DNA of 64,000 nt from a virus. Of this stretch, positions 28,201-61,190 are shown in pieces. The stretch is from the IMG/VR virus record IMGVR_UViG_3300015196_000001; one strand, written 5' to 3'. Both the position numbers and the translations under genes were made by a program. Numbering within the stretch: position 1 is the stretch's first letter; every line of letters starts with the position of its first letter. The notes beneath the pieces are model-generated. The model saw only the letters and a program-made list of their open reading frames with translations. It was not told the origin of the DNA and did no database searches.

Positions 28201-28622
28201 GCAAGGACCCCTCTCTGGCATACCGTCGAGATCAGTACTGGTTCAGTCAGGTTAATAACCTTATGCAACAACAGCAGATGCAAGCGCAAGCTCAGCAAGC
28301 CCAAGCCCAAGCGGCTCAGGGTGGTCAGCCAAGCCAGGGCCCTGACGGCAAAGGTCAACCTCCTGAAGGCGGTGCGCCTCCCCAGGGCGGTCAAGGGCAA
28401 GCTCAGCCTCCTCAGCAGGAAGAGTCAGACTTGACTCGTGGTCTAGATCAGCTCATGGGATTGCTAACTAAAACAGAGAAACAACTAACTCCCTCTAAGC
28501 GCCGAGTACTTGCACAACAGCGTAAGACTGTTAAATCGACTATGGACAAGTGGCATGAAGAAAGAGATGCCACCCTAAAATCCTTTATGGATACCGTTGA
28601 GCACTTTGTACCAAAGAGCTAA
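25242..28622 (+). CDS. Portal protein containing an intein
   Basis: FRPIDAGTI, MEFQ..ARVILSAFQMSPEEL, GIRPL, EVRE portal-like motifs; between terL and gpF; Q/G/P-rich tail. Confidence 0.88.
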   Translation: MAKSPLSQALSNKSASAKQTIMISVADPNSTNIAKLTKSIGTGAAAGAESPLLKSIMNVLNGDAQDSIERLAFERDPTVTNEFQALFYTKTRLLPDSVLKRIAIQDDLVAAIVGVRSNQIAAFGRPQPDRFSTGFKIEPKPGVLNDKEKNYKDEIQSRIEKARDCLSMCGRVAGWADADRMTLSQFLYQQTRNAVIVGRFATEIIHVTEDGEKKFHSFRPIDAGTIYKATPQTKAAEQVRKQARLLLEQLKNEKFIPDKMEHGEYAHVQVIEGRPVQAFTPDECVVHNVYPVTDVELCGYPLTPIDTMIAAVTTHINIVTHNKLYFQAGRAARGMLIIKSEDVSPAIVATIRQQFNASINSVNNAWRMPVFGIGPQDEITWAPIDNSSRDMEFQYLSDSNARVILSAFQMSPEELPGYAHLSRGTNNQALSECFQEDSILWTDNGAVSAKDLLGNIKNEVPVRVWTGTEYTAARLFRTGDKILCETRAGNLTLKTSPDHRFRVLTDEGDLAWKRQEKLRVGDLLVVNAKPVPGDASKIPMFRGKVFTPAMMEVLGWSIGDGTLIEPVANVHGGGLKLFYHHDKERDIWESHAKTLTDFGFDVKQHERVVTEEEATKLKSEYGFKTVAKTRITNTIYSNEFCAFLKEIGFSFSSRDKSIPAVFHVLPIEYRKAFLKGLFSADGHATKQGAIVLTMQADSTREQVGQMLLGLGIRTLACNGIVRCSFGDKELEKQLYVKDKNLFWEQIGFIQSHKLARRRDQKWSLGAAPTTLAARLLGPLIETTLFKSWGKRTRDNIKGIIQGKRTVSFNKLQEFLSEIGQVPAWMCDYHVEPVTELVAHGSVVPMVDVEVFDKEHAQILQGFQVHNSNNEYKLEAHRDVGIRPLISQFQDFLNSRIFPLIDENLAKLCVIKLVGLDAETAEKESVRLQQDMVIHMTYDEVRERVEKDPLGEEWAGDLPLNPTIWEYINSLFTVGEILEKFCGREGASKDPSLAYRRDQYWFSQVNNLMQQQQMQAQAQQAQAQAAQGGQPSQGPDGKGQPPEGGAPPQGGQGQAQPPQQEESDLTRGLDQLMGLLTKTEKQLTPSKRRVLAQQRKTVKSTMDKWHEERDATLKSFMDTVEHFVPKS
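26538..27839 (+). mobile_element. Intein with LAGLIDADG homing endonuclease (434 aa) in portal
   Basis: Starts CFQEDSILWT, ends FQVHN followed by Ser. LGWSIGDG and LKGLFSADG motifs. Confidence 0.92.
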
Positions 28623-32621: not shown

Positions 32622-35531
32622 ATGACATTACGTTCTTTTCTACTAGCAGTTGCTATCTCTGCCACAAGCCTATTTGCCCCCGCTTCTCCCGCATCGACCA
32701 GCACCCCGGTGGGTGTCTGGACAAATGTGACCCCGGCAGGGATGAACCTCAGCCCCAATTTTGGTGGAACCAACAATAACTACGGCGTGCAGGTTGTCGT
32801 TGTGGACCCGGCCCGTCAGAGCGATCTATACGCTTCAATTGATTACCAGGGAATATGGAAATCAACCGACTACGGCGTTAACTGGAGCAAAATCAGCACA
32901 GGAACTAACGGCACTGTCCTTGATTTTGGCCGACCCTGGGCGCTGGCCATCGACACCAACAAAGCGCGCAATCCAGCTACAGCGCCAACACTGTGGACCG
33001 TCTCCGGCTATGGCACTCAGACCGGCATTTTTAAGTCCATTGATGGTGGCGTTAACTGGGTAAAAACATCGTTCCCGTATTTTGCCGATGGCTATCTTAA
33101 TGGCCAGGATCCTTACAGCCTTGAAGTAGATCCATATGACGGTACACACCTCATCACTGGATTCCACGGTACCTCTGAGGCTGCTGAGTCAATCGACGGC
33201 GGAAGCACCTGGAAGATCGTGCCTACACCTCCTGGAGTTGGCACTTCGCTATACCTTTTCTTCATTGATACCGGCGTTGCAGCTACGACACGGACTAATT
33301 GGGTATCTATTTCTCAGTGGACTAGCAACACCAAAGGTGTTTGGCACACTTCAAACGGGGGAGCGAGCTGGACACAGGCTGCCACCTTCGAGCATTTCCA
33401 CGGTAACTCTCAGCTCTTCAATGCAGGCAATAGCGTAGCTTATATTGGTGCGACCGGGGGCGTCTATAAAACGGCAGATGGCGGGGCGACATGGAGCAAC
33501 ATTCTCGGCGGCAATAAAAATGGCGTAGTTGGAACGCCGAGCACTCTTTACACCTCGTTTGGTTGGGCTACTAATGGCAGCTGGGGAGCTGCACTCGCCC
33601 ATGCGGCGGTCAGCAACGATAAGACGTGGATCACAGACCCGATCCCCGCTACAATGAGCAATGGAGCTAAGCACACTGCGGTCACCTTTGATGGAATGAA
33701 CTACGTGATTGTTTCTCCTAATGGCCTCGCCGGGTTATGGCGATTCGTTGAGGTTGCGAGTGCACCGCCACCCGCTGTTTCCGTTTCAATCTCACCTAAT
33801 ATCATTGCTGGGGCAGCGTTACAATTTAGTGCTCTCGTCAGCGGCTCTTCCGACACTACCGTTAACTGGGTTTTACAGGAGGGACCTGTATGCGGCGCAG
33901 TTAGCTCGGGTGGTCAGTACACAGCGCCGTTAATGGTGCCTAATCCGGCCACTTGCCACGTTGTTGCGACCAGTCGGGCAGACGCCACTAAGACCGCCTC
34001 TGTCTCTGTCACCGTTACAGCCTCAGCTAGCGTTGGCGGTCTCGGCCCGCCAGCACTTCAGATCACTGGTGGCATGCTGCTCGATCCACATGGCAATAAA
34101 GTAATACTGCGCGGAGTCGCTACAATGGGGATGGGAATGGTTTATGGCGATAAGGCCAACCCAGGTACTTACTTGCCGATGACGGTGCCACAATATGTAC
34201 ATCTGGCTTCGCAGACTGACGCTACCGGCAACAAATGGTATCCAACTGCAATCCGCCTTGCGTTCGAGCGTTTCCCCTGTGTAGACCCGAAACGGCTTTA
34301 CACAATCGAAAACAGGCCATACGCAATGCCTGACACCGTCACCTTCAGTGCCTGGATGGCTAATGCCGTATCGATTGAAGGTGCAGTAGCTACTTTTGGC
34401 GGGAGTCGTTACCGTGCGGTAAAGATCAATTGGCGCGCAGATCGTGGGGCCGCTTGGAATCTAGGCACCTACGCGCTTGGTGACGTGGTTTCTGGTTACG
34501 GTAATGGCAACGATATGCACCTTTATCGCAATACATTTGCTTCAGGCGCTGGACCGTCATACACGTGGAATGGCGGGCCATCTGGAACTAGCTTGACCGT
34601 TCCTTCAACCGACGCAATGAGCAATCAGTGGCTTTACATTGGCGAGTTCGGGACCAGCGGCAGCACTCAGCCATTCACTGGCGCGACCGTGACTGATTAT
34701 AGTGTTGGTGCTGTTTACCCGGACAACTTTCTCTGGTGGCAATATATGAGTATCGATTACACGCCCGCCCAGGCGCTGAGCAACTTCAACGACTGGAAAT
34801 CTAAGGTTATGGATCCTGCTATTCAGGCTGCGGTAGACGCCAAGCTCTACGTAGTAGTCACTGACTTTGACTTCGGCCCCGCGCAACACCCTTTGCGTCA
34901 CGCACGCATGCTTGATTTCTGGTCTAGGATGGCGCGCTCGCAGTGGGCAAACCATCCACAGGTGATCTTTGAATTGTGGAATGAAAGCGAAGACGTTGGC
35001 CCCTACGCGGGTGGATCTGGGTCGTGGGCAGTTCAAAAGCCGATCATTCAGGAGACGGTCAACGCTATTCGAGCAGCCGGAGCTAACAATATCGTCGTTG
35101 TGCCAACTCCCTTTTACAGCGCCTGGGTAGGCGAGGCAACGGCGAGCCCATTGACTGGCACCAATCTGGCCTATGCACTTCACGCCTATCGGAGTCAGTG
35201 GGAATCTTATTCTTCAAATCGGGACCAGATCAGCCAAGGTCTCGCCAGCGGGCAGGCAGTTATGATGACTGAATGGGGCGATAACACCGACCCCTCCAGT
35301 GCCACCAATACCTGGGCCACCACCACCTCGACCCCACCCTCCCTGCGGCAGTTACTGGAGCCAAGCGAAGGCTCTCTGCATCCGCCTATTGGTTGGTTTG
35401 CCTGGGCTCAGACCCAAACGTGGTCGCCCGATCTGTTCAGCGATGCAGCCCTCACCCAGCCTACTAATTTTGGCACGGCGACCCGGCAATGGCTGCTTGA
35501 TAAAAGACTGGACAGCCAGCCCGTTCCCTAG
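32622..35531 (+). CDS. Secreted multidomain glycoside hydrolase (GH74/BNR-like propeller + Ig-like + GH5-like TIM barrel)
   Basis: Signal peptide MTLRSFLLAVAISATSLFAPA; S.D.G.(T/N)W BNR repeats; Ig-like VSVSISP..GQYTAP; GH5 motifs LRGV, IRL, FELWNE, LHAY, MTEWG, GWFAW. Confidence 0.8.
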   Translation: MTLRSFLLAVAISATSLFAPASPASTSTPVGVWTNVTPAGMNLSPNFGGTNNNYGVQVVVVDPARQSDLYASIDYQGIWKSTDYGVNWSKISTGTNGTVLDFGRPWALAIDTNKARNPATAPTLWTVSGYGTQTGIFKSIDGGVNWVKTSFPYFADGYLNGQDPYSLEVDPYDGTHLITGFHGTSEAAESIDGGSTWKIVPTPPGVGTSLYLFFIDTGVAATTRTNWVSISQWTSNTKGVWHTSNGGASWTQAATFEHFHGNSQLFNAGNSVAYIGATGGVYKTADGGATWSNILGGNKNGVVGTPSTLYTSFGWATNGSWGAALAHAAVSNDKTWITDPIPATMSNGAKHTAVTFDGMNYVIVSPNGLAGLWRFVEVASAPPPAVSVSISPNIIAGAALQFSALVSGSSDTTVNWVLQEGPVCGAVSSGGQYTAPLMVPNPATCHVVATSRADATKTASVSVTVTASASVGGLGPPALQITGGMLLDPHGNKVILRGVATMGMGMVYGDKANPGTYLPMTVPQYVHLASQTDATGNKWYPTAIRLAFERFPCVDPKRLYTIENRPYAMPDTVTFSAWMANAVSIEGAVATFGGSRYRAVKINWRADRGAAWNLGTYALGDVVSGYGNGNDMHLYRNTFASGAGPSYTWNGGPSGTSLTVPSTDAMSNQWLYIGEFGTSGSTQPFTGATVTDYSVGAVYPDNFLWWQYMSIDYTPAQALSNFNDWKSKVMDPAIQAAVDAKLYVVVTDFDFGPAQHPLRHARMLDFWSRMARSQWANHPQVIFELWNESEDVGPYAGGSGSWAVQKPIIQETVNAIRAAGANNIVVVPTPFYSAWVGEATASPLTGTNLAYALHAYRSQWESYSSNRDQISQGLASGQAVMMTEWGDNTDPSSATNTWATTTSTPPSLRQLLEPSEGSLHPPIGWFAWAQTQTWSPDLFSDAALTQPTNFGTATRQWLLDKRLDSQPVP

Positions 35532-36867: not shown

Positions 36868-36905
36868 AAAAAAGGGGGGCCTAGTTTTCCCAGCCCCCTT
36901 TTTTT
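36868..36905. terminator. Intrinsic terminator-like hairpin (AAAAAAGGGGG...CCCCCTTTTTT)
   Basis: Inverted repeat with A/T tails just downstream of the DUF932 gene. Confidence 0.55.
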
Positions 36906-37894
36906 AGGCAGCCGCCTGAAGCTTCAGCCCGGTCTGCTCCGCGATAAAATCCCAGGCTTTCTGCTTCAGCACCCGCCCCGACCCAAACCAGTTGGCGGTC
37001 AGGCGGCTCTCGGCCTCGTTGCCAACCCTCGCTGACGCGGGTGGAGCGGTGGTGGTCAGAGTACTCGGTGATCCCGTTGTAAGCCGCCCACGCCGTTCCT
37101 TCGATCTTCTTCTGTCCCACGCCGTTCTCCATCAAATTCAGGGCTGCTTCTCGGTTGTTCTTGGTGCGGGTGGCGATCTCTTCCTCCGAGCTGGGGAAGA
37201 GGTGATTGACCAGTGCGATTGACTGCTTGACGGTGTACTTGGTTTGCGCAAGGGCCTTGAAAGTTTCGCCAAGAACATCGTAATACCTGTTGGCAAGCCC
37301 AAGCACCGATTTGGCCTCGTCGATCTTCTGGCGGGCGTTCTTGGTGTGGCGAATGGACACACCATCCTTGGTGTTGAAACCGCGCATCGCCGCGTTCAGG
37401 GTGTTCTGGCACACAACCCGGATCGGGGTGTAGTGCATGCGGATCGCACCGCTGCCGTCGTGGGTATTGGACAGGAGGAGGTACTTGTCCACCACGTCAT
37501 CCCGCGTCACCTTGATCGAGGAGGGGAGCTTGGCGAGCAAAAAGATGCGCCGACCGTCGTCCAGGCTGCCAGCCGTTTCGTACATTGCCGCATGCTCGCC
37601 CACCACGCCGTCGAAAAAGTCGAAGGCCTCAACGTTTTGGAAAGGCTGGTACCGCTTCCCCACGATGCCCAGGGCCTTCTCGTCCGAGACGCGGACAATT
37701 GCCTTGTAGTCCCCGACCAGCTGTGCAGTCTGACCCGCCGCTCCAGCTGCGTACAGGTCGCGCTTCTCGACGTTCCAATCCAGCCCAGCCGCCTTGATCG
37801 CGCTGGCTGCGTGCTGGGCTCCCTCGACGGCAACTCCCAGACCATGCCAGGGCTTCGATCCCGTGTACATCATCGTTTCGACATTTGCGGGCAT
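36904..37894 (-). CDS. DUF932/DUF945 (TIGR03299-like) phage/plasmid protein with an apparent +1 frameshift near 37024
   Basis: MPANVETMMY..PWHGLG..AGLDWNV, YETAG, HDGSG, RVVCQNTL. The family-like C-terminus ESRLTANWFGSGRVLKQKAW is in another frame ending at 36904. Confidence 0.8.
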
Positions 37895-43330: not shown

Positions 43331-43420
43331 GCCCAAAGCGTAATCTTAGGTAGATGACTCCAACTTTCATTCTTTACAGGCCTTTTGATCCACGAGATAG
43401 GCAGCTATGGTACGTGTCAA

Positions 43421-46400
43421 ATGACAAATAAAATACCGAAGGGCTTGATCCTCTCAGGGTGCGCGGCTAGTAGTGCTATCGATAGCAGTGGCGAGATATT
43501 GGACATTGAAGGAGCAGATATTAGCGACCTAGAAGAGGGTCGCGGTGTACTCAATTATGAACATGTCAATGACAAAGATAAAGGTGCCTCCTTTAACTCT
43601 ATCATTGGTAGGATCATTTTCGCTAAGAAATTGTTCAAATTAGGCGATTGCTCTACCGACGATGAACGTAAATTTTGGAATCAAGTCAAGCTTCCAATGA
43701 TCTATATCCAGGTCGAACTATTCGACGAGGAGGGGCACCCTGGAGCCGTAGCCGCAGCCGCGATGCTTCGTCACTACGCAGCTCGCGGTTTACCGATGCT
43801 CCAACGTTACAGTATTGAGGGGTCCACCTTAGAACAAGACGGTCAAAAGATCAAGAAATCGATTATAAGGCGCGTTGCATTAACAACCAAGCCGTGTAAT
43901 AGGTCTTGTCATTCCGGCATCTTGGAAGATCCTAAAGCCCCAAAAGGACCAGAAGCTGAAAAAGATCCACTGGAAACTGGTAAAGCAGAAGAGCACCCCA
44001 GTTATCGTAAACTGGGGGGCAGCGTGGAATTGGAGTGTGACCCAATCTGCAAGATGGAAGAGCTTGAGCTTGACTCAGACACACTTCGAGCTAATGCCTA
44101 CCTAAAACTACAAACAATCAAGAAGGCAATTACCGCAGGCAACTACAATGCTGCGCCCGGTTCCCTTACCCAAGGTGCAGCGTTGCAAGTGGAAGACCGC
44201 AACCTGCACAAAGCTCGTTTTAAGAATCAGGTCATGGCCGTGTGTCGTGACTATCGTAAAGAAGACCATGGGGATCTTAAAGCATTTCTAAAGCACCGTC
44301 TTCCCGAGGCTGATCCTGAGTTTATTGATACTTTTGCAAGGCTAGTCAGTGAGTATTCGGTTAAGAAGACAGAGGCTTCAGACAATGAACTAACCAAGGC
44401 CTTGACCTCCCCACCCAATGACGTTAAAGGGAAGACCGCCAAGCCCGAGGCTATTAAGGCTCCTGCTGTTATTGGGCTAAAGTCACCTCGGCAATTACTA
44501 GCTCATCTGCCGGCTGACGAGCCATGGTTTCACGACGACTCAGGCACTCTTAATGTACCTGCCTCTGGCGGCAAAGAGCCTTCTCCACGTAAGCTACACA
44601 AAATATATATTCCGGGTGAAGAGTTCAAAAACTTGATGGATGACCCCTCCGTAACTGTACCACATGAGCATGCTGTAGCTAACTGGCAGAACGTTAATGA
44701 CTTGATGACGCAGAAGCAGACTCCACCCCGTGTATCTATGCTTGCCTCACTACTAGGTTTTTTCTCAGCTAACGAGGGCGTGCCCGTTCAGGAGTTAGCG
44801 GTAGCTCATGCAATGGACATGATCAATGGAGGCTATGATCCGTCTAAGGGGCCTATGACCCCAGAGCAGGAGCTGGAGTTGCGTCTACGCTGGTCATCTC
44901 GTATCCCGCCTGAGTACGAGCACGATTCGATGAGCACTCGACCCGACTTACGTATTAAGACCAAAAAGGATCCTAACTTTGGTCAGATGAAACTGGTCGG
45001 TTTGCCTGATGGTAAGACCCGTGCACTAAATTCTTATCATCGGATGAACGATCGTATCATGGACCTGATTTCTCAACACGGTAATAATGGTCGTGCTATT
45101 GTAGGTGAGCTGGTCAAAGACAAAGTAGCTTACGAAAATTGGAAAAAGCATGCAAAAGGACAGGAGACTGAGTACAAAGGTATAGCCTTTGACGGTATTA
45201 AAAACAAGATCCTGCGCTATACCACAGCTATGATGGGAGCGGGCAACATCCATATACCTGATACCCACTTTCTTAGACACACATTCGGATTAGCTCATGG
45301 TAAGGATAACCAGATGATTAAGGATGTCGTCTGGAATGAGAATAACGCACATCTATTAAATCAAATTGATAAGTATTACTACGCCCACCATCCAGCCGTA
45401 AGGAAGACCATCGATAAGTTTTTTGGTGGAGTCGCCAATGAGCAGGCCATCTTTCCTGCTTTCTGGTGGCACTGGTTGACTATTGCCGCAGATGAAAAAC
45501 GTCGTGGACTAAAAACAGGTTCGCAGCATAATGACGGCACCGATCACGCAGTCTTCTTTAATGGTATCCATAAAACCGTTCAAGATACTTTGCATAGATA
45601 CGGCATCCCATCTCATACTCCTGCGCTCGATAAGGCAGAAGGCGTATACCCAATCCCAGGCATTCATCATGTACCAATTGAAAATCGAGTTGCTTATGCG
45701 ACTGAGGATCTTCGTCAAAAGTATGGAGAAGCAGCCGCAAGTTGGGCCATGTATGCGTATATGTATCCAGCTATTGAGGCAGCCGATCGCGTGGATTCCC
45801 TAAAACAAACCGCCGTTCAGAAGACAGAAGAGTTAACCATTCAGCTGAGCTACGTTGCTAAACTCCTAAAGGGTGATCCTTTAGCCGATCAGCTTTATGC
45901 CGACCTAAAAGACGACTTCCCCTCCCCTTCCCCTCCCAAAAAGATTGTATTCAGAGGAGCTGTAGTTCGCCCAGGAGAAATGCATGGTATTGGTAGTTCT
46001 GTTAAAGGACAGAAATTCCATATTTTAGGAAATAGAGATGGTCACCATATTGTGGTTCCTTGGGATAAGATTCTAGACTTTACTCACGCTGATCTCAAAA
46101 GTGTTAGACCTGAAGACGTTGGGACCAAGTTTAAGCTCATTAACCCCTTTGAATTAGAACCAAACAGTTCAAGTAGCACCATAATATCTGGTTTTCATGG
46201 TATTCCTCGATATATGCGTCATCCAGAACAAGCAGCTCTCATAAATGGGACTGACGTATCCGCACCTGAAGTAGCAAAAAGTAACAGTGGAGTGAACCAA
46301 TATTGTAGCCATTGGCGTAAAATGGGGAATGGTAAGCTTGGTTACATTAAAGAGACTGATGGTAAAGGTAAAAATCAGTTATCGGAGGCACATTCCGAAG

Positions 46401-47104
46401 CACTTGCTTATAACGTCGCCAAGTCGATGGGGCTAGGGCATTTTTACCCCACCACATCTGTCTTTATTCATCCAGTGACGGGTCGGCCTACTAGCGTTAT
46501 GGAGGCCGTGTCTGGAGGCCGTCACCGAGAAGGCTCCAGCAGTCAGCTGCCTGGAGCCCCCGTGCAGGAACAGCGCGACATGTTACATTTCCACGCCAAA
46601 TCGGGTGATTTACAAAAATTAGCGCTACTTGACCAAATTATGGCAAACAACGACCGACACTCTGGTAACTATATGTTTGCACATGGACAGACTCCGTCAA
46701 TTATGATGATTGATCATGGCTTCACTTTTGCTGAAGACAAGGAATCTGTTTCTAGTCCTGGATATCTTCGAGACGAAGACCCACACTGGATGAATCGCTC
46801 GATTCATCCAGAAGCATTAAAGTGGTTACTTGCACAGGATGCAGATAAATACGAAAATTTGCTTCTCGACCATGGAATGCAGGGCGAAGCTAAACCATTC
46901 GCCAATCGCCTTCGGAACCTTCAACAGGCGACAACTGGTTATGGGCCATGGGGACCTGAAATGTCCTTCGGCGCCTTGCGCGAGGGGGTTGACCCCTCTC
47001 CACCGCCTTTGTCATGGCAGTGGAGTACAAACCGTGAGGTAAACGATCATCTTCCTGGTTGGACTGAGCAGGAAGAAAATCTGCAAAGACGAATCGATTC
47101 GTAA
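43421..47104 (+). CDS. Prohead protease fused to a capsid N-arm mimic, an HhH-like domain and a PI3/4-kinase-like domain
   Basis: Likely start ATG 43421. LILSGCAASSAIDSSGE, LNYEH, YSIEG, VALTTKPCN (HK97-type prohead protease); IPDTHFLRH; IKE..SEALAY..DQIMANNDRHSGN..IDHG. Confidence 0.8.
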   Translation: MTNKIPKGLILSGCAASSAIDSSGEILDIEGADISDLEEGRGVLNYEHVNDKDKGASFNSIIGRIIFAKKLFKLGDCSTDDERKFWNQVKLPMIYIQVELFDEEGHPGAVAAAAMLRHYAARGLPMLQRYSIEGSTLEQDGQKIKKSIIRRVALTTKPCNRSCHSGILEDPKAPKGPEAEKDPLETGKAEEHPSYRKLGGSVELECDPICKMEELELDSDTLRANAYLKLQTIKKAITAGNYNAAPGSLTQGAALQVEDRNLHKARFKNQVMAVCRDYRKEDHGDLKAFLKHRLPEADPEFIDTFARLVSEYSVKKTEASDNELTKALTSPPNDVKGKTAKPEAIKAPAVIGLKSPRQLLAHLPADEPWFHDDSGTLNVPASGGKEPSPRKLHKIYIPGEEFKNLMDDPSVTVPHEHAVANWQNVNDLMTQKQTPPRVSMLASLLGFFSANEGVPVQELAVAHAMDMINGGYDPSKGPMTPEQELELRLRWSSRIPPEYEHDSMSTRPDLRIKTKKDPNFGQMKLVGLPDGKTRALNSYHRMNDRIMDLISQHGNNGRAIVGELVKDKVAYENWKKHAKGQETEYKGIAFDGIKNKILRYTTAMMGAGNIHIPDTHFLRHTFGLAHGKDNQMIKDVVWNENNAHLLNQIDKYYYAHHPAVRKTIDKFFGGVANEQAIFPAFWWHWLTIAADEKRRGLKTGSQHNDGTDHAVFFNGIHKTVQDTLHRYGIPSHTPALDKAEGVYPIPGIHHVPIENRVAYATEDLRQKYGEAAASWAMYAYMYPAIEAADRVDSLKQTAVQKTEELTIQLSYVAKLLKGDPLADQLYADLKDDFPSPSPPKKIVFRGAVVRPGEMHGIGSSVKGQKFHILGNRDGHHIVVPWDKILDFTHADLKSVRPEDVGTKFKLINPFELEPNSSSSTIISGFHGIPRYMRHPEQAALINGTDVSAPEVAKSNSGVNQYCSHWRKMGNGKLGYIKETDGKGKNQLSEAHSEALAYNVAKSMGLGHFYPTTSVFIHPVTGRPTSVMEAVSGGRHREGSSSQLPGAPVQEQRDMLHFHAKSGDLQKLALLDQIMANNDRHSGNYMFAHGQTPSIMMIDHGFTFAEDKESVSSPGYLRDEDPHWMNRSIHPEALKWLLAQDADKYENLLLDHGMQGEAKPFANRLRNLQQATTGYGPWGPEMSFGALREGVDPSPPPLSWQWSTNREVNDHLPGWTEQEENLQRRIDS

Positions 47105-47214: not shown

Positions 47215-50200
47215 ATGGCTGTTTCTACTTTACATGATCTTTATCGAGTTTATTTGACTACCCCGCAAGAGGACGGTAATGTAAACTATCGGCTTGCGGG
47301 TAGGTTTGCTTTGCACGGGGATCAACTAGATATTCTAGAAGACCATATGGGTGTCATTGCCAGTAACATTCACGAAGGTCACGTCAACGTGAGGACACGG
47401 CAGGCTATTGAGGCACTTAAGCATTCCGCTTATATGAAAATAGTAAGTGAACACAGCCTTAATTCAGGTGAAGACACTGACCTAATTGAGCCACTTGACG
47501 GAGGTGAAGGTCTTGCTTCCCCTGTTGTTGAGGGAACCACTATTCCTCAAGCACCAGCTGATGTATTTCACTATTACCATGCAGGTATGGAGCATCCACA
47601 GGTACTTGAAGCAATCGATGATAAGGTACTGATGAATGGTAACGAGCTTGCCCCAGATGAAATGGAACAAGTAATAGCCAACATCCAAAGCGGGAACGCC
47701 TCGCTACGTTATCCTAAAGCCCCTGTAGGAGAAAGAGTGCTCAAAATGGAACAAGCACTCGAAGAACTATCTAAAGTAGAAAAGACTATTACTCCTGCTA
47801 TGCGGGAGTTACGAGCCGCTGTTGACTCAGGGCATATTAGCCCTGAGTCGCTTAAGGTAATCACCCATCACATGTTTGTCGATGCAATGGTGCCAGGAGT
47901 AGGCAATCGTTTTGCATACCGTGACTTCCTTGCGCGTTCTAAAAAGGGCATTCATGTACGTATTGACGCCAATGACTTTGGTGGTATCAATAAAGACCAT
48001 GGCTTTGAGACAGGCGATGGAGCTATTAGAGCTTTAGGTGGCGCCCTACGTGCTTCAATGGACAATGCAGTAGGACAGAAACACGGAAAATTGTTTCGTA
48101 TCGGTGGAGACGAATTCCATGCGTTTGTTCCCAATCACGAACAGGCAGCTCGTTTCCTGAGAACAGCTCGCGAGCAGCTTGGTAGTATCCCACCTATCGG
48201 CGGAACACACAACCTCTCTTTCTCCGCTGGCATGGGTCCTTCACCATTTCATGCAGAGGCTTCTTTAATGGCAGCTAAGAGGGCCAAGAAGAGCATGGGG
48301 TACTTGTTGGGTCAAGCAAAGAACCATGTATATAGCAGCACTTCAGGTCATATTCCTATTGATACTGATAAGCCACCTTTGATCCCTCCACCACCAGAAG
48401 CAAAGGGAGTACCTGCACCTACTGTTGCTGACGTAGCTGTAGGTATGCCGCCTCCTAAGCAAGAGATCCCACTTCAGGAAGTCCAGAAAGCCGAGGGTGC
48501 TGATTTTTTAGCCCAGGTGCAGGACCAGCTGACGGACGATCTACGTAAGCCAAGATATCAGGGCAACGTAAATCCTATGGCTGGACACTGCTATGTTGCC
48601 TCAGAAGCAATGTACCATTTGTTGGGTGGAGTGCGAAGTGGCTATACACCACAGCAAATCAACCATGAAGGTGAGAGTCACTGGTATTTGCGACATAAAG
48701 AGACAGGCAAGATACTAGACCCTACTGCCAACCAGTTCGAGACACCTGTGCCATACGAGAAGGGTCGCGGAAAAGGTTTTCTTACAGCCCACCCCTCAGT
48801 ACGTGCCCGCACTGTTATCGCTGGGATCACTAAAAAACACGGTCCTCAAGTAAAAAAGGCAGAACCAGAAGACTTGAAACCACTCTCAGTGGTGAGTAGC
48901 GTGGAGAAGGTGCCTACCAAGCCAGCCAACGGTCAACCGATGTGGTACCAGGACGAGACTTCCTCGTCTCGTTTTCCCAGTCAATTTAACCCCAAACTTG
49001 CTGAGTGGAAAGAGAGCTATATTGGCGCACTCAAAGAGTATTTCGGGAAAAACCTGAAGCCGGTCAAGATCAGGGTGGCGACGGCAGTCCCCAATAACGC
49101 TATTCACAAGCCTGACCGACGCGACCTGTATAGTGAGATGATCAGGAATGGGGCACCTATCCCGCCTGTAGTAGCCAGCCCCTACGACCCGTTACAAGGT
49201 GGTCATCAAATAAAAGATGGGTCACATCGCTTAGATGCTGCACAGAGAGCCGGTTTAGAAGAGATAGATGGATATGAGATAGTTCCATCTGAGGTCCCTC
49301 CTCAGTTCAACCCCAATCTCATCGCATCGTCTCCGCAACCCGAAGTAGACCAGTACCGATTTATGCGTGATGTAGCAGGTCGTCTACCCTGGGAAGCAGG
49401 GTTCACTAAGACTGAGATTAACGAGAAGCTTGACAAGCTGTTGAGTTTGGGTGAAGATGTTGAAATGCAGAAGTCCGAGCCCAGCCCGCGCCAGTCAAAC
49501 CCTGCGCCTGCGAACATCGAAGCATATATGAATCAGGACCCCTCGGCGCGCTTTGACCACACCTCCCCAGAGCCCAAACGACCAGTTTATACGTTTGGGC
49601 CTATCGGGCATACTCGTACACTTCAACGACAAGTACCACTTTCTAATTTATATCTTGCACATCATTCGGTTAATCCGTTAAAACCAGATACTATGGATTC
49701 TTTGCAAAATGACCACCCATCTAAATACCCACCGATTTCAGTCATTATTGACGAACCGGCTGCTTGGCCTGAATGGCTTAAGCTCAACAAACAACCTCTT
49801 GATCCAGCTCATCCAAAATTATTTGTGAATGATGGTCATCATCGCATTCGCGCCGCCAATAACCAAAAAGTGTCATCTATCTTAGCGGATGTACGAGAGA
49901 AACCAACTGACAGGGCTCATTGGCGTGATGAGGATATCGTAAAGTCCGAGCCCGCCGCGCTGGAGAAGATGGCAGCTCTCGACCCGAACGCGGGCTACAC
50001 GTTCGAGTACGGCCCCTACCCGCACGGCCCGTCGTGGGCCGACCCCATGGTGCAAGTGACGGCACACCATAACGGGCAGCGGGTCGGGCACGTTACCTTC
50101 TCCGTTAATGGGAATACCATGAAGCCCTGTAACGTAGAGGTCGTCTCGGAGCATCGTCGCAAAGGCCTCGCGAGCGCTATGTATGCCCACGCGGAGAGTA

Positions 50201-50394
50201 AGGCATGGGGGCGGAAGATCGTGCCGTCTGGCATGCAGACCCCAGACGGGCAGGCTCTCTGGGCAGGCAATGAGCGAGACAAGCAATTCGGGAAGGTTGA
50301 GCCCACGAAGAAGGCGTCGTTCATTTGTCCAAAATGTCTGGCGAGGTACGCGGAGAATGGAGCCTGCAACTGCCCGCCGACGAAGAAGCTTTAA
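47215..50394 (+). CDS. Polyvalent protein: GGDEF + papain-like + two ParB-like + GNAT + zinc ribbon
   Basis: DANDFGGINKDHGFETGD..RIGGDEF; GHCY..HWY..LDPT; DGSHRL and DGHHRI; HRRKGLASAMY; CPKC..CNC. Confidence 0.8.
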   Translation: MAVSTLHDLYRVYLTTPQEDGNVNYRLAGRFALHGDQLDILEDHMGVIASNIHEGHVNVRTRQAIEALKHSAYMKIVSEHSLNSGEDTDLIEPLDGGEGLASPVVEGTTIPQAPADVFHYYHAGMEHPQVLEAIDDKVLMNGNELAPDEMEQVIANIQSGNASLRYPKAPVGERVLKMEQALEELSKVEKTITPAMRELRAAVDSGHISPESLKVITHHMFVDAMVPGVGNRFAYRDFLARSKKGIHVRIDANDFGGINKDHGFETGDGAIRALGGALRASMDNAVGQKHGKLFRIGGDEFHAFVPNHEQAARFLRTAREQLGSIPPIGGTHNLSFSAGMGPSPFHAEASLMAAKRAKKSMGYLLGQAKNHVYSSTSGHIPIDTDKPPLIPPPPEAKGVPAPTVADVAVGMPPPKQEIPLQEVQKAEGADFLAQVQDQLTDDLRKPRYQGNVNPMAGHCYVASEAMYHLLGGVRSGYTPQQINHEGESHWYLRHKETGKILDPTANQFETPVPYEKGRGKGFLTAHPSVRARTVIAGITKKHGPQVKKAEPEDLKPLSVVSSVEKVPTKPANGQPMWYQDETSSSRFPSQFNPKLAEWKESYIGALKEYFGKNLKPVKIRVATAVPNNAIHKPDRRDLYSEMIRNGAPIPPVVASPYDPLQGGHQIKDGSHRLDAAQRAGLEEIDGYEIVPSEVPPQFNPNLIASSPQPEVDQYRFMRDVAGRLPWEAGFTKTEINEKLDKLLSLGEDVEMQKSEPSPRQSNPAPANIEAYMNQDPSARFDHTSPEPKRPVYTFGPIGHTRTLQRQVPLSNLYLAHHSVNPLKPDTMDSLQNDHPSKYPPISVIIDEPAAWPEWLKLNKQPLDPAHPKLFVNDGHHRIRAANNQKVSSILADVREKPTDRAHWRDEDIVKSEPAALEKMAALDPNAGYTFEYGPYPHGPSWADPMVQVTAHHNGQRVGHVTFSVNGNTMKPCNVEVVSEHRRKGLASAMYAHAESKAWGRKIVPSGMQTPDGQALWAGNERDKQFGKVEPTKKASFICPKCLARYAENGACNCPPTKKL

Positions 50395-52054: not shown

Positions 52055-52912
52055 ATGACTTTCAAAGACAATGAACTAAAGGCACTTCTAGCCGAAGTGT
52101 CAGCTGACCTAGAAAAAGCGATGGCATCTGAAGCGAATGAGCTTCGCAAAGCCATTGGCGACGAACCCGGTGAGGAAGACCCCTCAGCAGCCCCTGATGC
52201 CTCGGCACCAGAAGGCTCTGCAACCGCAGCTGACGCAAGCCCGGCACCTGCTGACGGCTCAGCGTCTCCCGGTCCAGAGGCCTCAGCGTCTCCTGGTGGG
52301 GACATGGGTCCAGGTGATGGCTTAGACCCTGCCGCCGATGCAGCTGTAGACCCTGAGGCGCTTAAGCAGGAATACATGAAGCTAGGACCCGAAGGAATCA
52401 AGGTCCACTTTATGGCCTGCAAGGCAGCCGCAATGGAAATGGTTGGTGGTGGTGGTGACCCTGCCGGTGCACCCGCCCCGTCGCCTTCACCCGCCCCTAT
52501 GGCACCTCCTGGTCCTGGTGCAGGCCCCGGCGCTCCTGGAGTAATGAAGGATGAACGCCTAATGAGTATCCAGCCTAAGGGAAAGATTACAAATGGGCCC
52601 GACCGTCTAGCTGACATTGCTGTCACTAAGTCGGAAAAGGAAATTGACTCACTTCGTGCCCAGGTTGACCTCCTTTCAAAGGCGATCCACGAAATCGTCG
52701 GTAAGCCGATTCGCAAGGCTGTCACTGAGGTTGAATTTAATGGCAAGCCTGAACTACCGACTACTACCAAGTTACTATCTAAGTCGGAAGTAACTGCCAA
52801 GCTTAAAGTCGTAACGAGCCGTCACGATCTAGCTAAGGGCGACCGCGAGCGAATTAACCAGTACTACGATGGTCAAGTAACCATCGAAGGAATTTCGGAT
52901 CTTTTGAAATAA
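52055..52912 (+). CDS. Capsid scaffolding protein
   Basis: Acidic A/P/G/D low-complexity protein directly upstream of MCP; many xxK|A/S/G sites (LEKA, LRKA, VTKS, LSKA, IRKA, LSKS, LAKG). Confidence 0.7.
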   Translation: MTFKDNELKALLAEVSADLEKAMASEANELRKAIGDEPGEEDPSAAPDASAPEGSATAADASPAPADGSASPGPEASASPGGDMGPGDGLDPAADAAVDPEALKQEYMKLGPEGIKVHFMACKAAAMEMVGGGGDPAGAPAPSPSPAPMAPPGPGAGPGAPGVMKDERLMSIQPKGKITNGPDRLADIAVTKSEKEIDSLRAQVDLLSKAIHEIVGKPIRKAVTEVEFNGKPELPTTTKLLSKSEVTAKLKVVTSRHDLAKGDRERINQYYDGQVTIEGISDLLK

Positions 52913-52943: not shown

Positions 52944-54341
52944 ATGGCGAACACACTAGAACAGCTACAGAGCCTTGTTAAGGCACTTGCGGCGGGCAGC
53001 TACAACGCAGCCCCTTCAACCCTAACTCAAGGATCTGCACTACAGGTCGAGGATCTATCACCGGTAATGAACAATGTTACCTTCGATGATTCTCATATTA
53101 AGCTTCAGAAGATACTAAAGGTCACGCCATGCAAGTCAACACTTGCCCAGTTTGATCGTCAGCTTAGCTACGGTATCTTCGGAGGTAGTGCTCAGCTCGA
53201 AGGCGCTATCGGTCAAGAAGAGACTAGCGATTTCGTACGTGTCGTGGTTCCAATTGCGTTCTACTCTCACGTACGTAAGGTAACTCTGGTTGCCAACCTC
53301 GTCGAGACTATCGACGGTAAAAAGGCAGAAGAGCGCGCCGCAGCTGACGCCGCTAAGAAGCTAGCAGCCGATATCGAATTCGACCTCTTCCGTGGTAAGG
53401 AAGCCTTTACGAACGTAGGCGTGTTCGACGGCAACCCTCTACAGATTCCGCCTCTTCCTAACGTTCTCGGTCTAGATACCCAGATCCGTCAGTCAGATGG
53501 TCAGCGTATTGCTTCGGACCTGATGTTCGCTGAGTACGGTTCAGACGACTCAGTTGTCATTGCCGGTGGTGGTACTCTTGCCCAGACAATGATTGAAGAC
53601 TCTGCTGTCCGCTCAGCCATGAACCTCGGCAACGCAGACAAGCTCGTAGTTGACCCCAAGGTTCTTTCGGCTTACAACAAGCTTATCTTCGCCAACCAGC
53701 GTATGGTTTGGGGTGGAAGCTCACCTGTCGATGCAACTGGTGCCGATCTTCGTCGCCAGTGGGTATCTGGCGGTACCGTCAACATCGAGGCAAGCCGCTT
53801 CCTGTCCGGCAAGTCAAAGGCCGCTCCTGCACGTAGCATCGGTCCCCTTCCTCCTGTTTCGGCAGTCGGTACGCCCGGCGCAGGTTCAACTGGTCTAGCT
53901 GCCGGTGTTTACATTTACGCGGTCAGCTCATGCAATGAAATGGGCGAGTCGGTCCAGGTCGTTTCTGCCGGTGCAACCCTAACCGCTGGGCAACAGACCA
54001 GCCTAGTTATCACTCACCCCGCCTCAGGTATCGTACGTTATTTTAACGTGTACCGTACCGCAGTCGGCGGGCTCGTGACTAAGTTCATCGGACGCATTGC
54101 AATCAATACCGCAGCCGGTGCAACCACTACCACCTTCCTCGACCTTGGAAACAAGCTCCCTGGATTCGTAACTGGTTTCCTACTCGAAGGCGACACTATG
54201 GAGATTCGCGAACTAGCTCCTTATAGCCGTCTAAAATTGGCTGTGGTGGATCTCAGCCAGCCCGAGGCGCACTTTAGATTTTTGACTCTATGTGTAACTC
54301 AACCGCGCAAGAATGTTTTGATCGACAACCTGATCGGTTAA
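52944..54341 (+). CDS. Major capsid protein (SPO1/Twort-like precursor)
   Basis: Short propeptide ending LVK|ALAAG..QGSALQVEDL, analogous to the KS|FTTG..AGALRRE start of Twort-like MCPs; 465 aa; followed by a terminator. Confidence 0.85.
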   Translation: MANTLEQLQSLVKALAAGSYNAAPSTLTQGSALQVEDLSPVMNNVTFDDSHIKLQKILKVTPCKSTLAQFDRQLSYGIFGGSAQLEGAIGQEETSDFVRVVVPIAFYSHVRKVTLVANLVETIDGKKAEERAAADAAKKLAADIEFDLFRGKEAFTNVGVFDGNPLQIPPLPNVLGLDTQIRQSDGQRIASDLMFAEYGSDDSVVIAGGGTLAQTMIEDSAVRSAMNLGNADKLVVDPKVLSAYNKLIFANQRMVWGGSSPVDATGADLRRQWVSGGTVNIEASRFLSGKSKAAPARSIGPLPPVSAVGTPGAGSTGLAAGVYIYAVSSCNEMGESVQVVSAGATLTAGQQTSLVITHPASGIVRYFNVYRTAVGGLVTKFIGRIAINTAAGATTTTFLDLGNKLPGFVTGFLLEGDTMEIRELAPYSRLKLAVVDLSQPEAHFRFLTLCVTQPRKNVLIDNLIG

Positions 54342-57364: not shown

Positions 57365-58210
57365 ATGGCTATCTATACAGGTTCTAAGCTAGATATTGGG
57401 CAGCAATTCCCAGAGCACGTAATTGACACAAGTTGGCAGCGCCACGAACCTCTATTAACACCTGAGCAATTTCGTGCACGTTTTCTTTTCGGTATTCCCT
57501 TGGTTTCAAATATATCGGATCCAGTCTCTGGAAAACGTCAGGCGATGACGGACGTTCTACTCAAAGACTATATCGAGAGAGCCGTTGAAATAGCAGCAGA
57601 AGCAGTAGGTATCCACATTATGCCTGCTCAGTTGAGCGAGAAGTACCCATTCGACCGGAATTTATTTGAGTCGTTCGGGTATTTACAGCTAGAACACCGG
57701 CCCGTTTCGTCGGTTGACGCATTGTCTATTCGCCCAGCTAATAACGTAGATATCTACTCATTCCCTATGGACTTCGTGGAAGTGACCGGACTCCAGCGTG
57801 GACAGCTCAACCTTGTACCGATTGGTTCAGCCATCGGCGTGTCTTCTTCATTTCAAGGTGGAGGCGGCTCAGGCATCGGCTACCTACTTGCTTTGGCTGG
57901 TGCACGTGGCTGGATCCCAGCTTGGTGGAATGTAACGTATACCGTTGGATTTGTCGATGGCATGCTCCCTAAGCTTATTAACGAGCTGATTGGAACCATC
58001 GCCGCTATAGAGGTACTGTGCAGTCTAGCTGCTACTCATGCCAACAGTACTAGCCATTCTTTGGGTATTGACGGTATGAGCCAGAGTATCAGCTCACCGG
58101 GACCAGATGTGTATACCATTCGTACCACTCAATTATCCGATAAACGCGATAAGACGGTCCAAAAGCTTAAAGCGATCTTCGGACTGAAGATGTTCTCAGG
58201 TCATGTCTAA
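57365..58210 (+). CDS. Head completion / head-tail adaptor protein
   Basis: LLTPEQ..LFGIPL, YIERA, QL..RPVSSV, VTYTVGF, SLGIDGMSQSIS; lies downstream of MCP. Confidence 0.7.
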   Translation: MAIYTGSKLDIGQQFPEHVIDTSWQRHEPLLTPEQFRARFLFGIPLVSNISDPVSGKRQAMTDVLLKDYIERAVEIAAEAVGIHIMPAQLSEKYPFDRNLFESFGYLQLEHRPVSSVDALSIRPANNVDIYSFPMDFVEVTGLQRGQLNLVPIGSAIGVSSSFQGGGGSGIGYLLALAGARGWIPAWWNVTYTVGFVDGMLPKLINELIGTIAAIEVLCSLAATHANSTSHSLGIDGMSQSISSPGPDVYTIRTTQLSDKRDKTVQKLKAIFGLKMFSGHV

Positions 58211-61190
58211 TCAACTACCTCCAGCCCTTGGCACAGCACCCCTGAAGCCGGGGCATGTGCGGTTGTATCACCAGACTGACAAGGCAAACCTAGAGAGCAT
58301 TAGACAAAACGGATTAACCCTTGCTGCTGCTCGTGGCATAGAAGGGCCTAAAGCGATCTACGCCTCTAAAGCTCCTTTTTATGGCTCAGCAGATCGTATC
58401 CCAACGGTAGAATTTCAGGTACCTGAAAAGGACTTTAGTGCTCCGTTTGTAACCGGCGATCACTATCATAAAGTAGACCCTTCTGAATTCTTAGCTATCC
58501 ATGAACCTTGGCATGGACACGCACGCTATTTAGAGGAAGACCCTGAACAGATCCGGCTCACAATGAGTGGCGGTCACGATCATCTTTTAGACATGGAAGA
58601 TCACGCCAAGGCAATCAATTATATCAAGGGTAAATATGGAGCCCCGTTAGTCCAAAAATCAGAGGCATCTAAAGAGCGCCGTGTGTCCTCAGTAGCCGTC
58701 TTTGGTAAGGACGATCGTCTGCTTTTTGGTAAACGACGCGACTGTGGGAAGTGGACTATGCCTGGAGGGCACTGTGAGGGCAACGAAGCCCCCGAGAAGG
58801 CAGCAGTGCGGGAGATGATGGAAGAGTGCAGTCTTGTCCCAGAAGAGCTTACTTACCTTGGCGAGGCACTTGCCGGGCGAAAAGGTAATGTACGTATTTA
58901 CTCCTTTAAGGCTATTGGTAGAGGTACTCCTTCTGCACGCAATGACCCAGACCATGAGTTTTCAGAGTTTAAGTGGGTCAACGTCAAAGAGGGTCTACCA
59001 GCTGAGATAGCCAATAACCTGTACAACCACAAGGACGTAACATTACGCCTATTAGGTTTACAAGAAAGTGGTTTAACTAAGGCTGAAACCCCGATCCGCA
59101 ACTCAGGAACATTCGACCCCAGCAACCCTGATGTGACTAAATCAGAGTTAGCTGACGGCGCTGCCAGTCAGGACAAAGATCACACCAAGACTCCAGAGTT
59201 TCACGACTGGTTTAATGGATCTAAAGCTGTTCATTGGGAAAAAGATCCAGACCAACCTAAGAAATATGGGGTTACTCAGTATAGGCCTACCAATAAACCC
59301 ATAGTAGCCTTTCATGGCACTGCCAAGGACTTTAGTCAGTTTGCTGATAAGGATGCGCAAGGCCAAGGTCCTCGCAAAGAAGGACGTGGCCAAGCTCGGC
59401 ATCCGTGGGCAGGCGACTTAGGGCATTGGTTCTCAGCCCCCTCTAAGTATCTTGGAAACTATGACCCAGGTAATGCGGAGTATGTGGCGGGATCGTTTAC
59501 TGAAGACAAAGACCCCAGTGCCCCCTATAACGCTTATAAGGAAGGGGCTCGTGTGTTGCCAGTCCATCTTTCTATTAAGAATCCAGCTGAATATGGCGAA
59601 TACGAAGAGATGCACGATGAAGCCAAAGATCATCCAACTTGGAAACATTTTCGTCAGCACCTTATAGACAAAGGGCATGACGGAGTTGTCATTCGTAATA
59701 GCATGACTGACGGTAACGTTGACCGTGACGACTGGGTGGCGTTTTACCAACACCAGATCAAGAGCGCTATAGGCAACTCAGGCACCTTTAACCCAAACGA
59801 CCCCCATATCGGTAAGTCTGAATTACTCAAGATGGCTATTGCTGACATTAAGCCGGGTGAAGAGTCAGGGTGGGGTGATGTTAAGACACCGGAGTATGTA
59901 CGTAGAAAGATTGCACGTGGCAAGCTCGACACCTCTGTATTTAACTATGATCATGTGCTTTCACCAGAGGAACGAGCTAAGGGTTACAACATAAGAGCCA
60001 CCACAATGCCAATTCACGATGGTTGGGCATATGGTCACGAATTATACACTTACCTGTTCCATCACAACCACCACGTAGGTGAAATAGGTGGCGAAATTCG
60101 TACAGACCATAACGTAGACTGCCTGCAACCATTGGACTGCACGAGCCCGAAGAGGCCGAGCCTGTCCGCTACTCGCCCGACCCGTCGGTGCTATAGTGTG
60201 TTAGATATTGGTTTAGCTGATGTAAGAGAAGAGCATAGAGGTAAGGGCCTTGGTTTACATCTTTACGAAGCAGCCATGGCCCACGCTAAGCACTATCATG
60301 GTGCCAAGAAAGTAGTTGGTAGTCACCACTCAACGTTTGCTCACCGTGCTCACGAGAAGGTGTCTGCACGACACGGGATGAGCTACTCAGCAGAGCTTCT
60401 TCCATGGTCAAAGGATAACAAGGTAGGCCCCTATGATAATAGATATGGAGACTACGAGTACAAGATCAAGAGCGAAGAAGAGGACGAGCCAGTTGATGCA
60501 AATCACTTTGAGGGGGACGGCGAAGTAACCCGCATGCTAAAACACCCTGTTCCTGCTGAACGACGTATGGCTCTTAAGCTTAACCACGTTCGCCACGACC
60601 ACATTTCTACTGCACTACGCGATAGTCATTTTGGCGTAAGGACAGATGCGGTAAAGCATCCCCTTTTTAATACAGAGCACGTAGACGAAGTATTCGATAG
60701 TGGAGACAATGCACAGAAGGCAGACGCCTTGCTTTCCCCTCATGTACGCAGTGAACACCTAGATCGAGCCTGGGCTTCTGAAGACGAAGGGCTGCGAGAT
60801 ATTGTAGCAGAGCACCCCAAGCTTACTGACGGTCATATACTCAAGTTCTACCATGAAGCAAATTTGGATGACGCACGTAAGGTACAACTCCTACGCCATG
60901 CCAACATTACACCGGACGTAGTTAACAGTATTTACAAAGAAGGTATCGAACATGTCGTCCATGGTGGAACAAACTATCCTATTTTGCATACGTTATCACA
61001 TCCTGCGCTGGGCATGGAACATTTACTTGATGCACTTCATTCTCCTGACCCGCGTCTTCACTTAAATGCTGTGCGCAATCCAATGGTGCCACAAGAGGAG
61101 CTGGAAGGGCTTCTGATTGAAGACTCAACCAGCCGTGAGCTACGTAATTTGGTATTAGAGCACAAGAATTTGGGTGGTTCAAATGGATAA
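58203..61190 (+). CDS. Polyvalent protein: ART-like + NUDIX + ART-PolyVal-like + GNAT + HEAT/LRV repeats
   Basis: LYHQT..SIRQNGL..IYAS; Nudix box GGHCEGNEAPEKAAVREMMEECSL; EFHDWF..FHGT..VHLSIKNP..GHDGV..QIKSAIGNSGTF; EHRGKGLG; ALxD/KHP helical repeats. Confidence 0.82.
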   Translation: MSNQLPPALGTAPLKPGHVRLYHQTDKANLESIRQNGLTLAAARGIEGPKAIYASKAPFYGSADRIPTVEFQVPEKDFSAPFVTGDHYHKVDPSEFLAIHEPWHGHARYLEEDPEQIRLTMSGGHDHLLDMEDHAKAINYIKGKYGAPLVQKSEASKERRVSSVAVFGKDDRLLFGKRRDCGKWTMPGGHCEGNEAPEKAAVREMMEECSLVPEELTYLGEALAGRKGNVRIYSFKAIGRGTPSARNDPDHEFSEFKWVNVKEGLPAEIANNLYNHKDVTLRLLGLQESGLTKAETPIRNSGTFDPSNPDVTKSELADGAASQDKDHTKTPEFHDWFNGSKAVHWEKDPDQPKKYGVTQYRPTNKPIVAFHGTAKDFSQFADKDAQGQGPRKEGRGQARHPWAGDLGHWFSAPSKYLGNYDPGNAEYVAGSFTEDKDPSAPYNAYKEGARVLPVHLSIKNPAEYGEYEEMHDEAKDHPTWKHFRQHLIDKGHDGVVIRNSMTDGNVDRDDWVAFYQHQIKSAIGNSGTFNPNDPHIGKSELLKMAIADIKPGEESGWGDVKTPEYVRRKIARGKLDTSVFNYDHVLSPEERAKGYNIRATTMPIHDGWAYGHELYTYLFHHNHHVGEIGGEIRTDHNVDCLQPLDCTSPKRPSLSATRPTRRCYSVLDIGLADVREEHRGKGLGLHLYEAAMAHAKHYHGAKKVVGSHHSTFAHRAHEKVSARHGMSYSAELLPWSKDNKVGPYDNRYGDYEYKIKSEEEDEPVDANHFEGDGEVTRMLKHPVPAERRMALKLNHVRHDHISTALRDSHFGVRTDAVKHPLFNTEHVDEVFDSGDNAQKADALLSPHVRSEHLDRAWASEDEGLRDIVAEHPKLTDGHILKFYHEANLDDARKVQLLRHANITPDVVNSIYKEGIEHVVHGGTNYPILHTLSHPALGMEHLLDALHSPDPRLHLNAVRNPMVPQEELEGLLIEDSTSRELRNLVLEHKNLGGSNG

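Follow-up and report, generated by a model that had tools for sequence, protein, structure and literature searches.

The open reading frame (ORF) at positions 47215-50394 of the virus record IMGVR_UViG_3300015196_000001 raises the question of why a phage should have a GGDEF domain, the domain of bacterial diguanylate cyclases, inside a protein of its head module. The whole stretch of DNA that was analysed (64,000 nucleotides, in the following called the window) comes from an uncultured Mx1-like myovirus from glacier ice. The ORF lies on the plus strand, as do the protease giant and the scaffold-like, capsid and second polyvalent genes described below; it is a single one and encodes in one reading frame a polyvalent head-module protein of 1059 amino acids (aa), P0001. 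The original prediction claimed a diguanylate cyclase with an intact active site and without an I-site. Its sequence shows the segment aa ~193-380 to be a genuine nucleotide cyclase domain of the GGDEF type. With modest confidence we favour the reading that the protein is a polyvalent head-cargo polyprotein which is cut by the head protease, and that the GGDEF fragment is injected into the host, where it would make cyclic di-GMP (c-di-GMP).

The domain together with two leading helices covers aa 193-380 (47791-48354), and its core, aa 223-362, corresponds to the range 47881-48300 that was first proposed. The motifs quoted at that time are all found in the frame of the ORF: MVPGVGNR at aa 225-232 (47887-47910), RIDANDFGGINKDHGFETGDGAI at aa 249-271 (47959-48027), LFRIGGDEF at aa 293-301, with the GGDEF signature G297-F301 at 48103-48117, and LSFSAG at aa 334-339. 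The Pfam family PF00990 matches the whole protein with 32.2 bits and aa 1-400 with 34.6 bits (gathering cut-off 23.8), and it also matches all 71 aligned relatives. The Pfam match begins only at aa 243; the domain is nevertheless complete, because D223 and MVPGVGNR correspond to DxLTGLxNR, the canonical start of GGDEF domains. For the GGDEF region a single-sequence search of PDB chains gave nothing but GGDEF cyclases, and a profile of the 71 relatives matched solved diguanylate cyclases with E values from 7e-13 to 1e-9. For aa 1-400 AlphaFold2 produced, from the alignment of the 71 relatives, a model with a mean predicted local distance difference test score (pLDDT) of 88.9, and at probability 1.00 Foldseek listed GGDEF proteins and no others; model and fold search both give the palm-like GGDEF fold. 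Sequence, profile and predicted fold thus agree that the domain is genuine. A homodimer prediction with two copies of aa 1-400 gave a score of 0.00, which is uninformative either way.

The GGDEF domain is part of a conserved module of ~400 aa, which consists of an N-domain, two helices and the GGDEF domain. The family-specific N-domain (aa 1-187, 47215-47775) is modelled with a pLDDT of 89 as two beta3-alpha-beta subdomains with no recognised fold, and searches of Pfam, PDB, AFDB clusters and the ESM Atlas gave no convincing match to it. Used as the query of an exhaustive HMMER search, aa 1-400 retrieved 693 cluster representatives with E<=1e-3, of which 173 had E<=1e-30; this family of N-domain plus GGDEF is widespread in metagenomes and has not previously been described. 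By architecture, 151 representatives fall into 94 stand-alone modules, 45 proteins with a long extension at the N-terminus, 11 with one at the C-terminus, which is the type of the 1059-aa protein, and one with both. The nearest relative is a stand-alone protein of 411 aa (65% identity), and the C-terminal extension is therefore a lineage-specific fusion. In 45 of the 151 representatives (~30%) a homologue of the prohead-protease giant, the 1239-aa protein encoded just upstream of the ORF, is fused N-terminal to the module. All 45 sequences which match this protein (E<=1e-3) have the module on the C-terminal side of the match; most of them match its first ~330 aa, and the homology to the N-terminal part of such relatives extends over aa 20-821 of the giant. 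The protease fusion makes packaging of the module in the capsid plausible. Other domains appended to the module among the relatives are a PBECR5 nuclease, a PI3/PI4-kinase-like domain, DUF3626 and fvmX5.

Between the N-domain and the GGDEF domain lies the linker motif L185-S-K187-V-E189 (47767-47781), a candidate cleavage site for the prohead protease. It lies in the sole low-confidence stretch of the model between the two domains, with pLDDT <50 at aa 185-188. Among the 71 relatives the linker has the form L-x-K-x-E/D, often with Pro next (L185 in 62/71, K187 in 64/71 and E/D189 in 58/71), and L-S-K-V-E resembles LVK↓A at the N-terminus of the capsid protein (...LVK↓ALAAG; the arrow marks the putative cut). 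A similar site, VQK↓AE, is found at the end of the proline-rich linker after the GGDEF domain (48481-48495). The pattern K-[AVST]-E occurs 7 times in the 1059-aa protein against 1.14 expected, a number reached in 0/5000 shuffles, and the seven sites (K187, K425, K548, K732, K753, K910 and K1027) are all outside the segments matched by Pfam or PHROG. The same pattern is found 5 times against 1.21 expected (p 0.007) in a second polyvalent protein of the window (58203-61190), which has NUDIX, ART-PolyVal and GNAT domains (PF00293, PF18760 and PF00583, all above cut-offs). The broader pattern [LIVMF]-x-K-[ASMV] shows a mild excess in the 1059-aa protein (9 vs 3.8 expected, p 0.014); portal, helicase and ORF 28626-31286 show no such excess, and the terminase has zero sites. 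Going by these counts, the cleavage signal is carried by the narrower K-[AVST]-E pattern.

The gene order around the ORF is terminase, intein-bearing portal, protease giant, ORF 47215-50394, scaffold-like gene and capsid gene, and it is syntenic with that of Myxococcus phage Mx1. The GGDEF carrier, which has the prohead protease gene on one side and the scaffold and capsid genes on the other, is thus a head-module protein as had been proposed, and the phage is of the portal-terminase type with late structural genes. The 1239-aa giant (43385-47104), which has a C-terminal PI3/PI4-kinase-like domain, shares, over 95% of its length, 34% identity with the 'putative prohead protease' of Mx1 and matches phrog_1028 (E 1.1e-5). 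The scaffold-like protein of 285 aa (52055-52912) has no family match and is rich in h-x-K-[ASMV] sites (6 vs 1.45 expected, p 0.001), and the major capsid protein (52944-54341) matches phrog_752 (E 3e-41) and is 59% identical to the Mx1 capsid protein. The domain content is also that of polyvalent proteins, i.e. two or more unrelated domains, mostly enzymes, in one polypeptide: GGDEF and GNAT are above their Pfam cut-offs in the 1059-aa protein, and a YunG-like and two ParB-like domains are weaker. Domains from the polyvalent vocabulary recur nearby and in the family, ART-PolyVal with NUDIX and GNAT in the window and PBECR5 and the PI3/4-kinase-like domain fused to the module in relatives.

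The proposed mechanism starts from what is observed: the identity of the domain, the conservation of its catalytic residues, the absence of an I-site, the gene context with its synteny, and the pattern of fusions. The protein would be made with the head genes and enter the prohead together with protease and scaffold, as suggested by the prohead-protease fusions of its relatives. The protease would cut after Lys in the L/V-x-K↓(A/S/V)-E linkers and in this way free a GGDEF fragment of ~238 aa (aa 188-425), with the other enzyme domains as separate pieces. These pieces would leave the capsid with the DNA, like Alt and the internal proteins of T4 or the Dar proteins of P1. In the infected cell the GGDEF fragment would condense two molecules of guanosine triphosphate (GTP) to c-di-GMP, and without an I-site the product would not shut off its own synthesis. 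The early rise in c-di-GMP would then shift motility, pili, exopolysaccharide and other host functions in favour of the phage, e.g. towards superinfection exclusion. A more general version is that GGDEF head-cargo modules lacking the I-site are cut free in the capsid, injected, and rewrite host c-di-GMP within minutes, which would make them the first virion-delivered synthase of a signalling nucleotide; this we put forward tentatively, with doubt prevailing over belief.

One alternative concerns delivery by the virion. The cyclase might be active and still not be delivered: made late, it would work in the already infected cell, and copies in the capsid would be incidental. Its role there might be a surface change which spares the progeny from being lost on debris or infected cells, a tuning of lysis, or signalling to phage proteins. 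We find this improbable. The gene does lie in a late structural cluster, which implies that the bulk of its expression is late, the 94 stand-alone members of the family lack a protease fusion, and the dose of a dimerising enzyme provided by a few injected copies is perhaps too small to matter. On the other hand, the 45 fused relatives are covalently joined to a prohead protease, which acts inside the prohead, the conserved L-x-K-x-E/D linker and like sites between every domain point to processing in the head, and the neighbouring genes are typical capsid-delivered polyvalent effectors.

The next question is whether the domain can be expected to make c-di-GMP. Its residues were compared with the list of catalytic residues of PleD (PMC6629876), using this list and the fixed DxDxFKxxNDxxGHxxGD spacing in an alignment to 5euh to assign equivalences; counts are given for 152 family rows and invariance for the 71 aligned relatives. 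The claim of an intact active site stands for six of the seven canonical residues, which are present or conservatively replaced, and must be qualified for the seventh, since the position of PleD Lys332 (the lysine of FK) is Gly256. The metal-binding Asp327 is D251, which is invariant. The guanine-binding residues Asn335 and Asp344 are N259 (kept in 150/152) and D268 (kept in 131/152, Asn in 16/152). In the signature, D299 and E300 are at the positions of PleD Glu370/371, so that the catalytic and metal-binding acid is present (G298 in 152/152, D299 in 151/152, E300 in 140/152). The phosphate-binding Lys442 is the invariant K355, and the position of Arg446 is K359, Lys or Arg in 83/152, next to K358 which is kept in 133/152. 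The residues invariant among the aligned relatives are D223, G245, D251, N259, G267, G298, D299, G330, G339 and K355. That catalytic residues are invariant at pairwise identities of 30-45% argues for selection on catalysis.

The missing lysine seems to have a counterpart four residues on, at K260 in the variant FKxxND helix (G256...K260, 47980-47994), as judged from covariation in the 152 rows. Position 256 is Lys in 87 rows and Gly in 46, position 260 is Asp in 78 and Lys in 42, and the joint states are K/D/H in 75 and G/K/x in ~40. The two positions are one turn apart and both within helix 255-262 of the model, and hence on the same face of the helix. In a tree made without the swap columns ~4/11 independent pairs change in the compensating direction and 0 in the opposite one (sign test, p ~0.125). 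There is thus modest support for K260 as a relocated lysine which compensates for Gly256, and the swap amounts to a natural experiment on the catalytic mechanism of GGDEF domains. It should be noted that many members of the G...K subgroup, e.g. P0008, P0009, P0011 and P0013, have Asn for the guanine-reading Asp (GN for GD, in 16 of the 152 rows); these variants could have a different base preference.

The lack of an I-site was predicted correctly. Five residues before GGDEF, where RxxD would be expected, the 1059-aa protein reads QKHG (aa 288-291). The same is true of the family: in the 152 rows Asp is outside the five commonest residues at column 291, and RxxD is not seen in the family.

Could the domain have the GGDEF fold without being a diguanylate cyclase? 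Its product could be another nucleotide, such as cyclic GMP-AMP (cGAMP), cyclic di-AMP (c-di-AMP) or linear pppGpG, serving as a decoy or competitor for cyclic-nucleotide immunity of the host; or the protein could be a GTP-binding or structural internal head protein which lost catalysis after the change from Lys332 to Gly. Apart from this glycine, the NCBIfam model TIGR00254, a more stringent one, gives 18.8 bits, below its cut-off of 37.4, and the domain therefore belongs to a divergent branch; the Asn in place of Asp268 in some relatives hints at varied specificity, and a Hypr GGDEF structure (6d9m) is among the matches. GGDEF relatives with other products are known, namely Hypr and mCpol, of which the latter makes c-di-AMP (PMC12657218). 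Yet the signature motif is normally lost in degenerate GGDEF domains without catalysis, whereas the present relatives, at only 30-45% identity, have retained GGDEF as well as the Asp that binds metal, the Asn and Asp that bind guanine and the Lys that binds phosphate, and the loss of the Lys at the Lys332 position is paired with the gain of a Lys one turn on in the same helix. In the Hypr enzyme GacA of Geobacter, Ser reportedly replaces the guanine-reading Asp344. The present domain has Asp268 and not Ser at this position, which switches Hypr enzymes to adenosine triphosphate (ATP), so the cGAMP-making Hypr type is not favoured. Taken together we consider a function other than that of a diguanylate cyclase unlikely. 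A chance occurrence of the GGDEF letters in some unrelated protein, for which nothing but the shortness of the motif speaks, is refuted to near certainty, since Pfam and the searches by PDB profile and by fold all lead to diguanylate cyclases.

Several points weigh against the preferred reading of an injected fragment which makes c-di-GMP. The score below the TIGR00254 cut-off is one, and the Gly at the Lys332 position is another; compensation by K260 is suggested by covariation only, and the independent pairs support it weakly. With the N-domain, cleavage could take away a part that the enzyme needs in order to dimerise, and GGDEF catalysis requires a dimer. Any value that c-di-GMP has for the phage would depend on its host. 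In the literature we found no usable account of the cleavage specificity of prohead proteases of the Herelleviridae type, and neither Pfam nor the PDB sequences gave a match to the first 260 aa of the protease giant; the name prohead protease comes from the weak phrog_1028 match, the Mx1 annotation and the motif pattern. Finally, catalysis, product, dimerisation, cleavage, packaging, injection and benefit to the phage are what we infer, in contrast to the observations listed above.

The concept of a GGDEF domain in a polyvalent protein is not new. Iyer, Burroughs, Anand, de Souza and Aravind found it in 2017 among the rarer domains of polyvalent proteins of phages and prophages, 'not very widespread', and predicted that such proteins are packaged and delivered at invasion and interfere with nucleotide signalling (PMC5512222). 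Their example is the Acetonema longum prophage protein WP_004096050.1, in which GGDEF occurs with SNF2, methylase, zincin peptidase and ART domains. The present protein shares with this class a GGDEF domain in one polypeptide with unrelated enzyme domains, a portal-terminase phage, and GNAT, ParB-like, kinase and ART partners. Compared with the published description of the Acetonema protein it differs in having a fixed module of N-domain and GGDEF domain, often fused to the protease in the family, with K-x-E linkers, and in its YunG-like, ParB-like, GNAT and zinc-ribbon partners. The term 'not very widespread' is also at variance with the at least 173 cluster representatives found here at E<=1e-30.

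The closest known system is Mx1 (OR576727.2), where WNM70323.1 and WNM70324.1 ('nucleotide cyclase') occupy the equivalent position, between the gene of the prohead-protease giant and that of the capsid protein. The orthologue is 33% identical over aa 9-356 of the 1059-aa protein and shares the lysine swap (FG..NK), GGDEF and an L-x-K-x-D-P linker. Unlike the 1059-aa protein, the module of Mx1 is split into two neighbouring ORFs, one for the N-domain and one for the GGDEF domain, and lacks a C-terminal extension. At 16721-17904 of Mx1 (L001 11992-13175) the N-domain ORF has 150 aa and the GGDEF ORF 243 aa, in different frames with a one-base overlap, and the second ORF begins just before the L-x-K-x-D-P linker. 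The Mx1 genome announcement does not comment on the 'nucleotide cyclase' gene (PMC10720576).

From the bacterial diguanylate cyclases PleD, WspR, DgcB, SiaD and SadC the protein differs by its phage-head setting, by lacking both a sensor or receiver domain and the RxxD I-site, by the change of Lys332 to Gly with a Lys four residues on, and by an Asn, in the whole family, for the second Asp of DxD. Alt and the internal proteins of T4 are packaged in the capsid, processed by protease and injected. The mode proposed here is like that of T4 Alt and of P1 DarB/DdrB: an enzyme made late goes to the prohead, where the head protease trims it, and is ejected along with the DNA to act on the host at once. 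These proteins modify proteins or DNA and none of them is known to make a second messenger, and the GGDEF module is a putative capsid cargo. DdrB of P1 is a packaged and injected enzyme (cited in PMC5512222). GGDEF proteins are annotated also in Pseudomonas phages (Yuavirus) and Bordetella phages (Vojvodinavirus) and are thought to alter biofilm and motility of the host (PMC8471281). These proteins (matches H51, H60 and H66) match in the GGDEF core only, with 26-28% identity and without the N-domain, and their genes are beside DNA-binding or exonuclease genes, outside the head module. What is new here, as read from sequence, is the delimitation of a large two-domain family with frequent prohead-protease fusion, a conserved cleavage-like linker, absence of the I-site throughout and the lysine swap.

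Phages degrade or sequester signalling nucleotides of their hosts. A capsid-borne c-di-GMP synthase, if true, would be the reverse strategy, in which a second messenger of the host is written from the first minute. c-di-GMP controls pili, flagella, exopolysaccharide and development, and through these also receptors of phages and barriers to them; the enzyme could thus govern superinfection exclusion or host behaviour. The 2017 idea came from domain architectures; delivery of an active cyclase by the virion, if true, would add to the interest of the present family. The orthologue in the cultured phage Mx1 of the genetically tractable M. xanthus makes the idea of virion delivery practical to test.

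The remaining part of the 1059-aa protein follows the proline-rich linker. It begins with the YunG-like domain (aa 432-536, 48508-48822), which matches phrog_12251 (E 1e-19) and PF24585 with 21.2 bits, not reaching the cut-off of 27. Stand-alone homologues are found in Caulobacter phiCbK-like phages, all of which conserve a hypothetical gene whose product shares 43-46% identity with the domain; the domain also matches two 735-kb uncultured phage records. Two ParB/Srx-like domains are weak assignments: the first (49072-49284, DGSHR at aa 668-672) matches phrog_1033 (E 6.5e-5) and the ParB chain 6t1f (E 0.05), and the second (49777-49929, DGHHR at aa 873-877) matches the first at DGxHR with an E value of 0.002 in a single comparison. 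A GNAT acetyltransferase domain (aa 944-1004, 50044-50226) matches PF00583 with 22.3-26 bits (cut-off 20.7), and the protein ends in a zinc-ribbon-like CxxC...CxC tail (50320-50391), read from the translation and without a family match.

The DNA of the ORF is present near-verbatim in six runs of three glacier or ice metagenome studies, and for this reason the long fused ORF is no assembly accident. Among the sequencing runs listed there was none of RNA. A protein identical to the product of the ORF was called on 10 contigs; a scan of IMG/VR with the single 1059-aa protein gave no match. The window has a guanine plus cytosine (GC) content of ~49%, and no transfer RNA genes were found within its 64 kb. 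Mx1 has 55.5% GC and its host 68.8% (PMC10720576), and as the GC of Mx1 differs from that of its own host, GC leaves the host of the present phage unsettled.

Some minor observations concern the other genes of the window. At aa ~240-275 the protease giant has a copy of ~30 residues of the capsid N-terminus (aa 8-40 of 52944-54341) including the likely maturation site; the copy, K↓A..AG.YNAAP..LTQG.ALQVED with LVK↓A-like residues, is kept in relatives such as P0003. The kinase-like match in the giant is at aa 1076-1122. A protein with a PI3/PI4-kinase-like C-terminus (62266-63999) follows the second polyvalent protein, as in Mx1. The portal (25242-28622) has Intein_splicing and LAGLIDADG_3 matches, ORF 28626-31286 Intein_splicing and DUF559/HNH, and the SF2 helicase (15993-18524) Hom_end_hint and LAGLIDADG. 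On the opposite strand between structural blocks there is a DUF932/phrog_1221 protein (36881-37894, minus strand, 211 bits). A 969-aa protein (32622-35531) combines a GH5 cellulase domain (66 bits) with a weakly matching Sortilin/BNR-like part at its N-terminus, and it lies where the GC is locally high (0.55).

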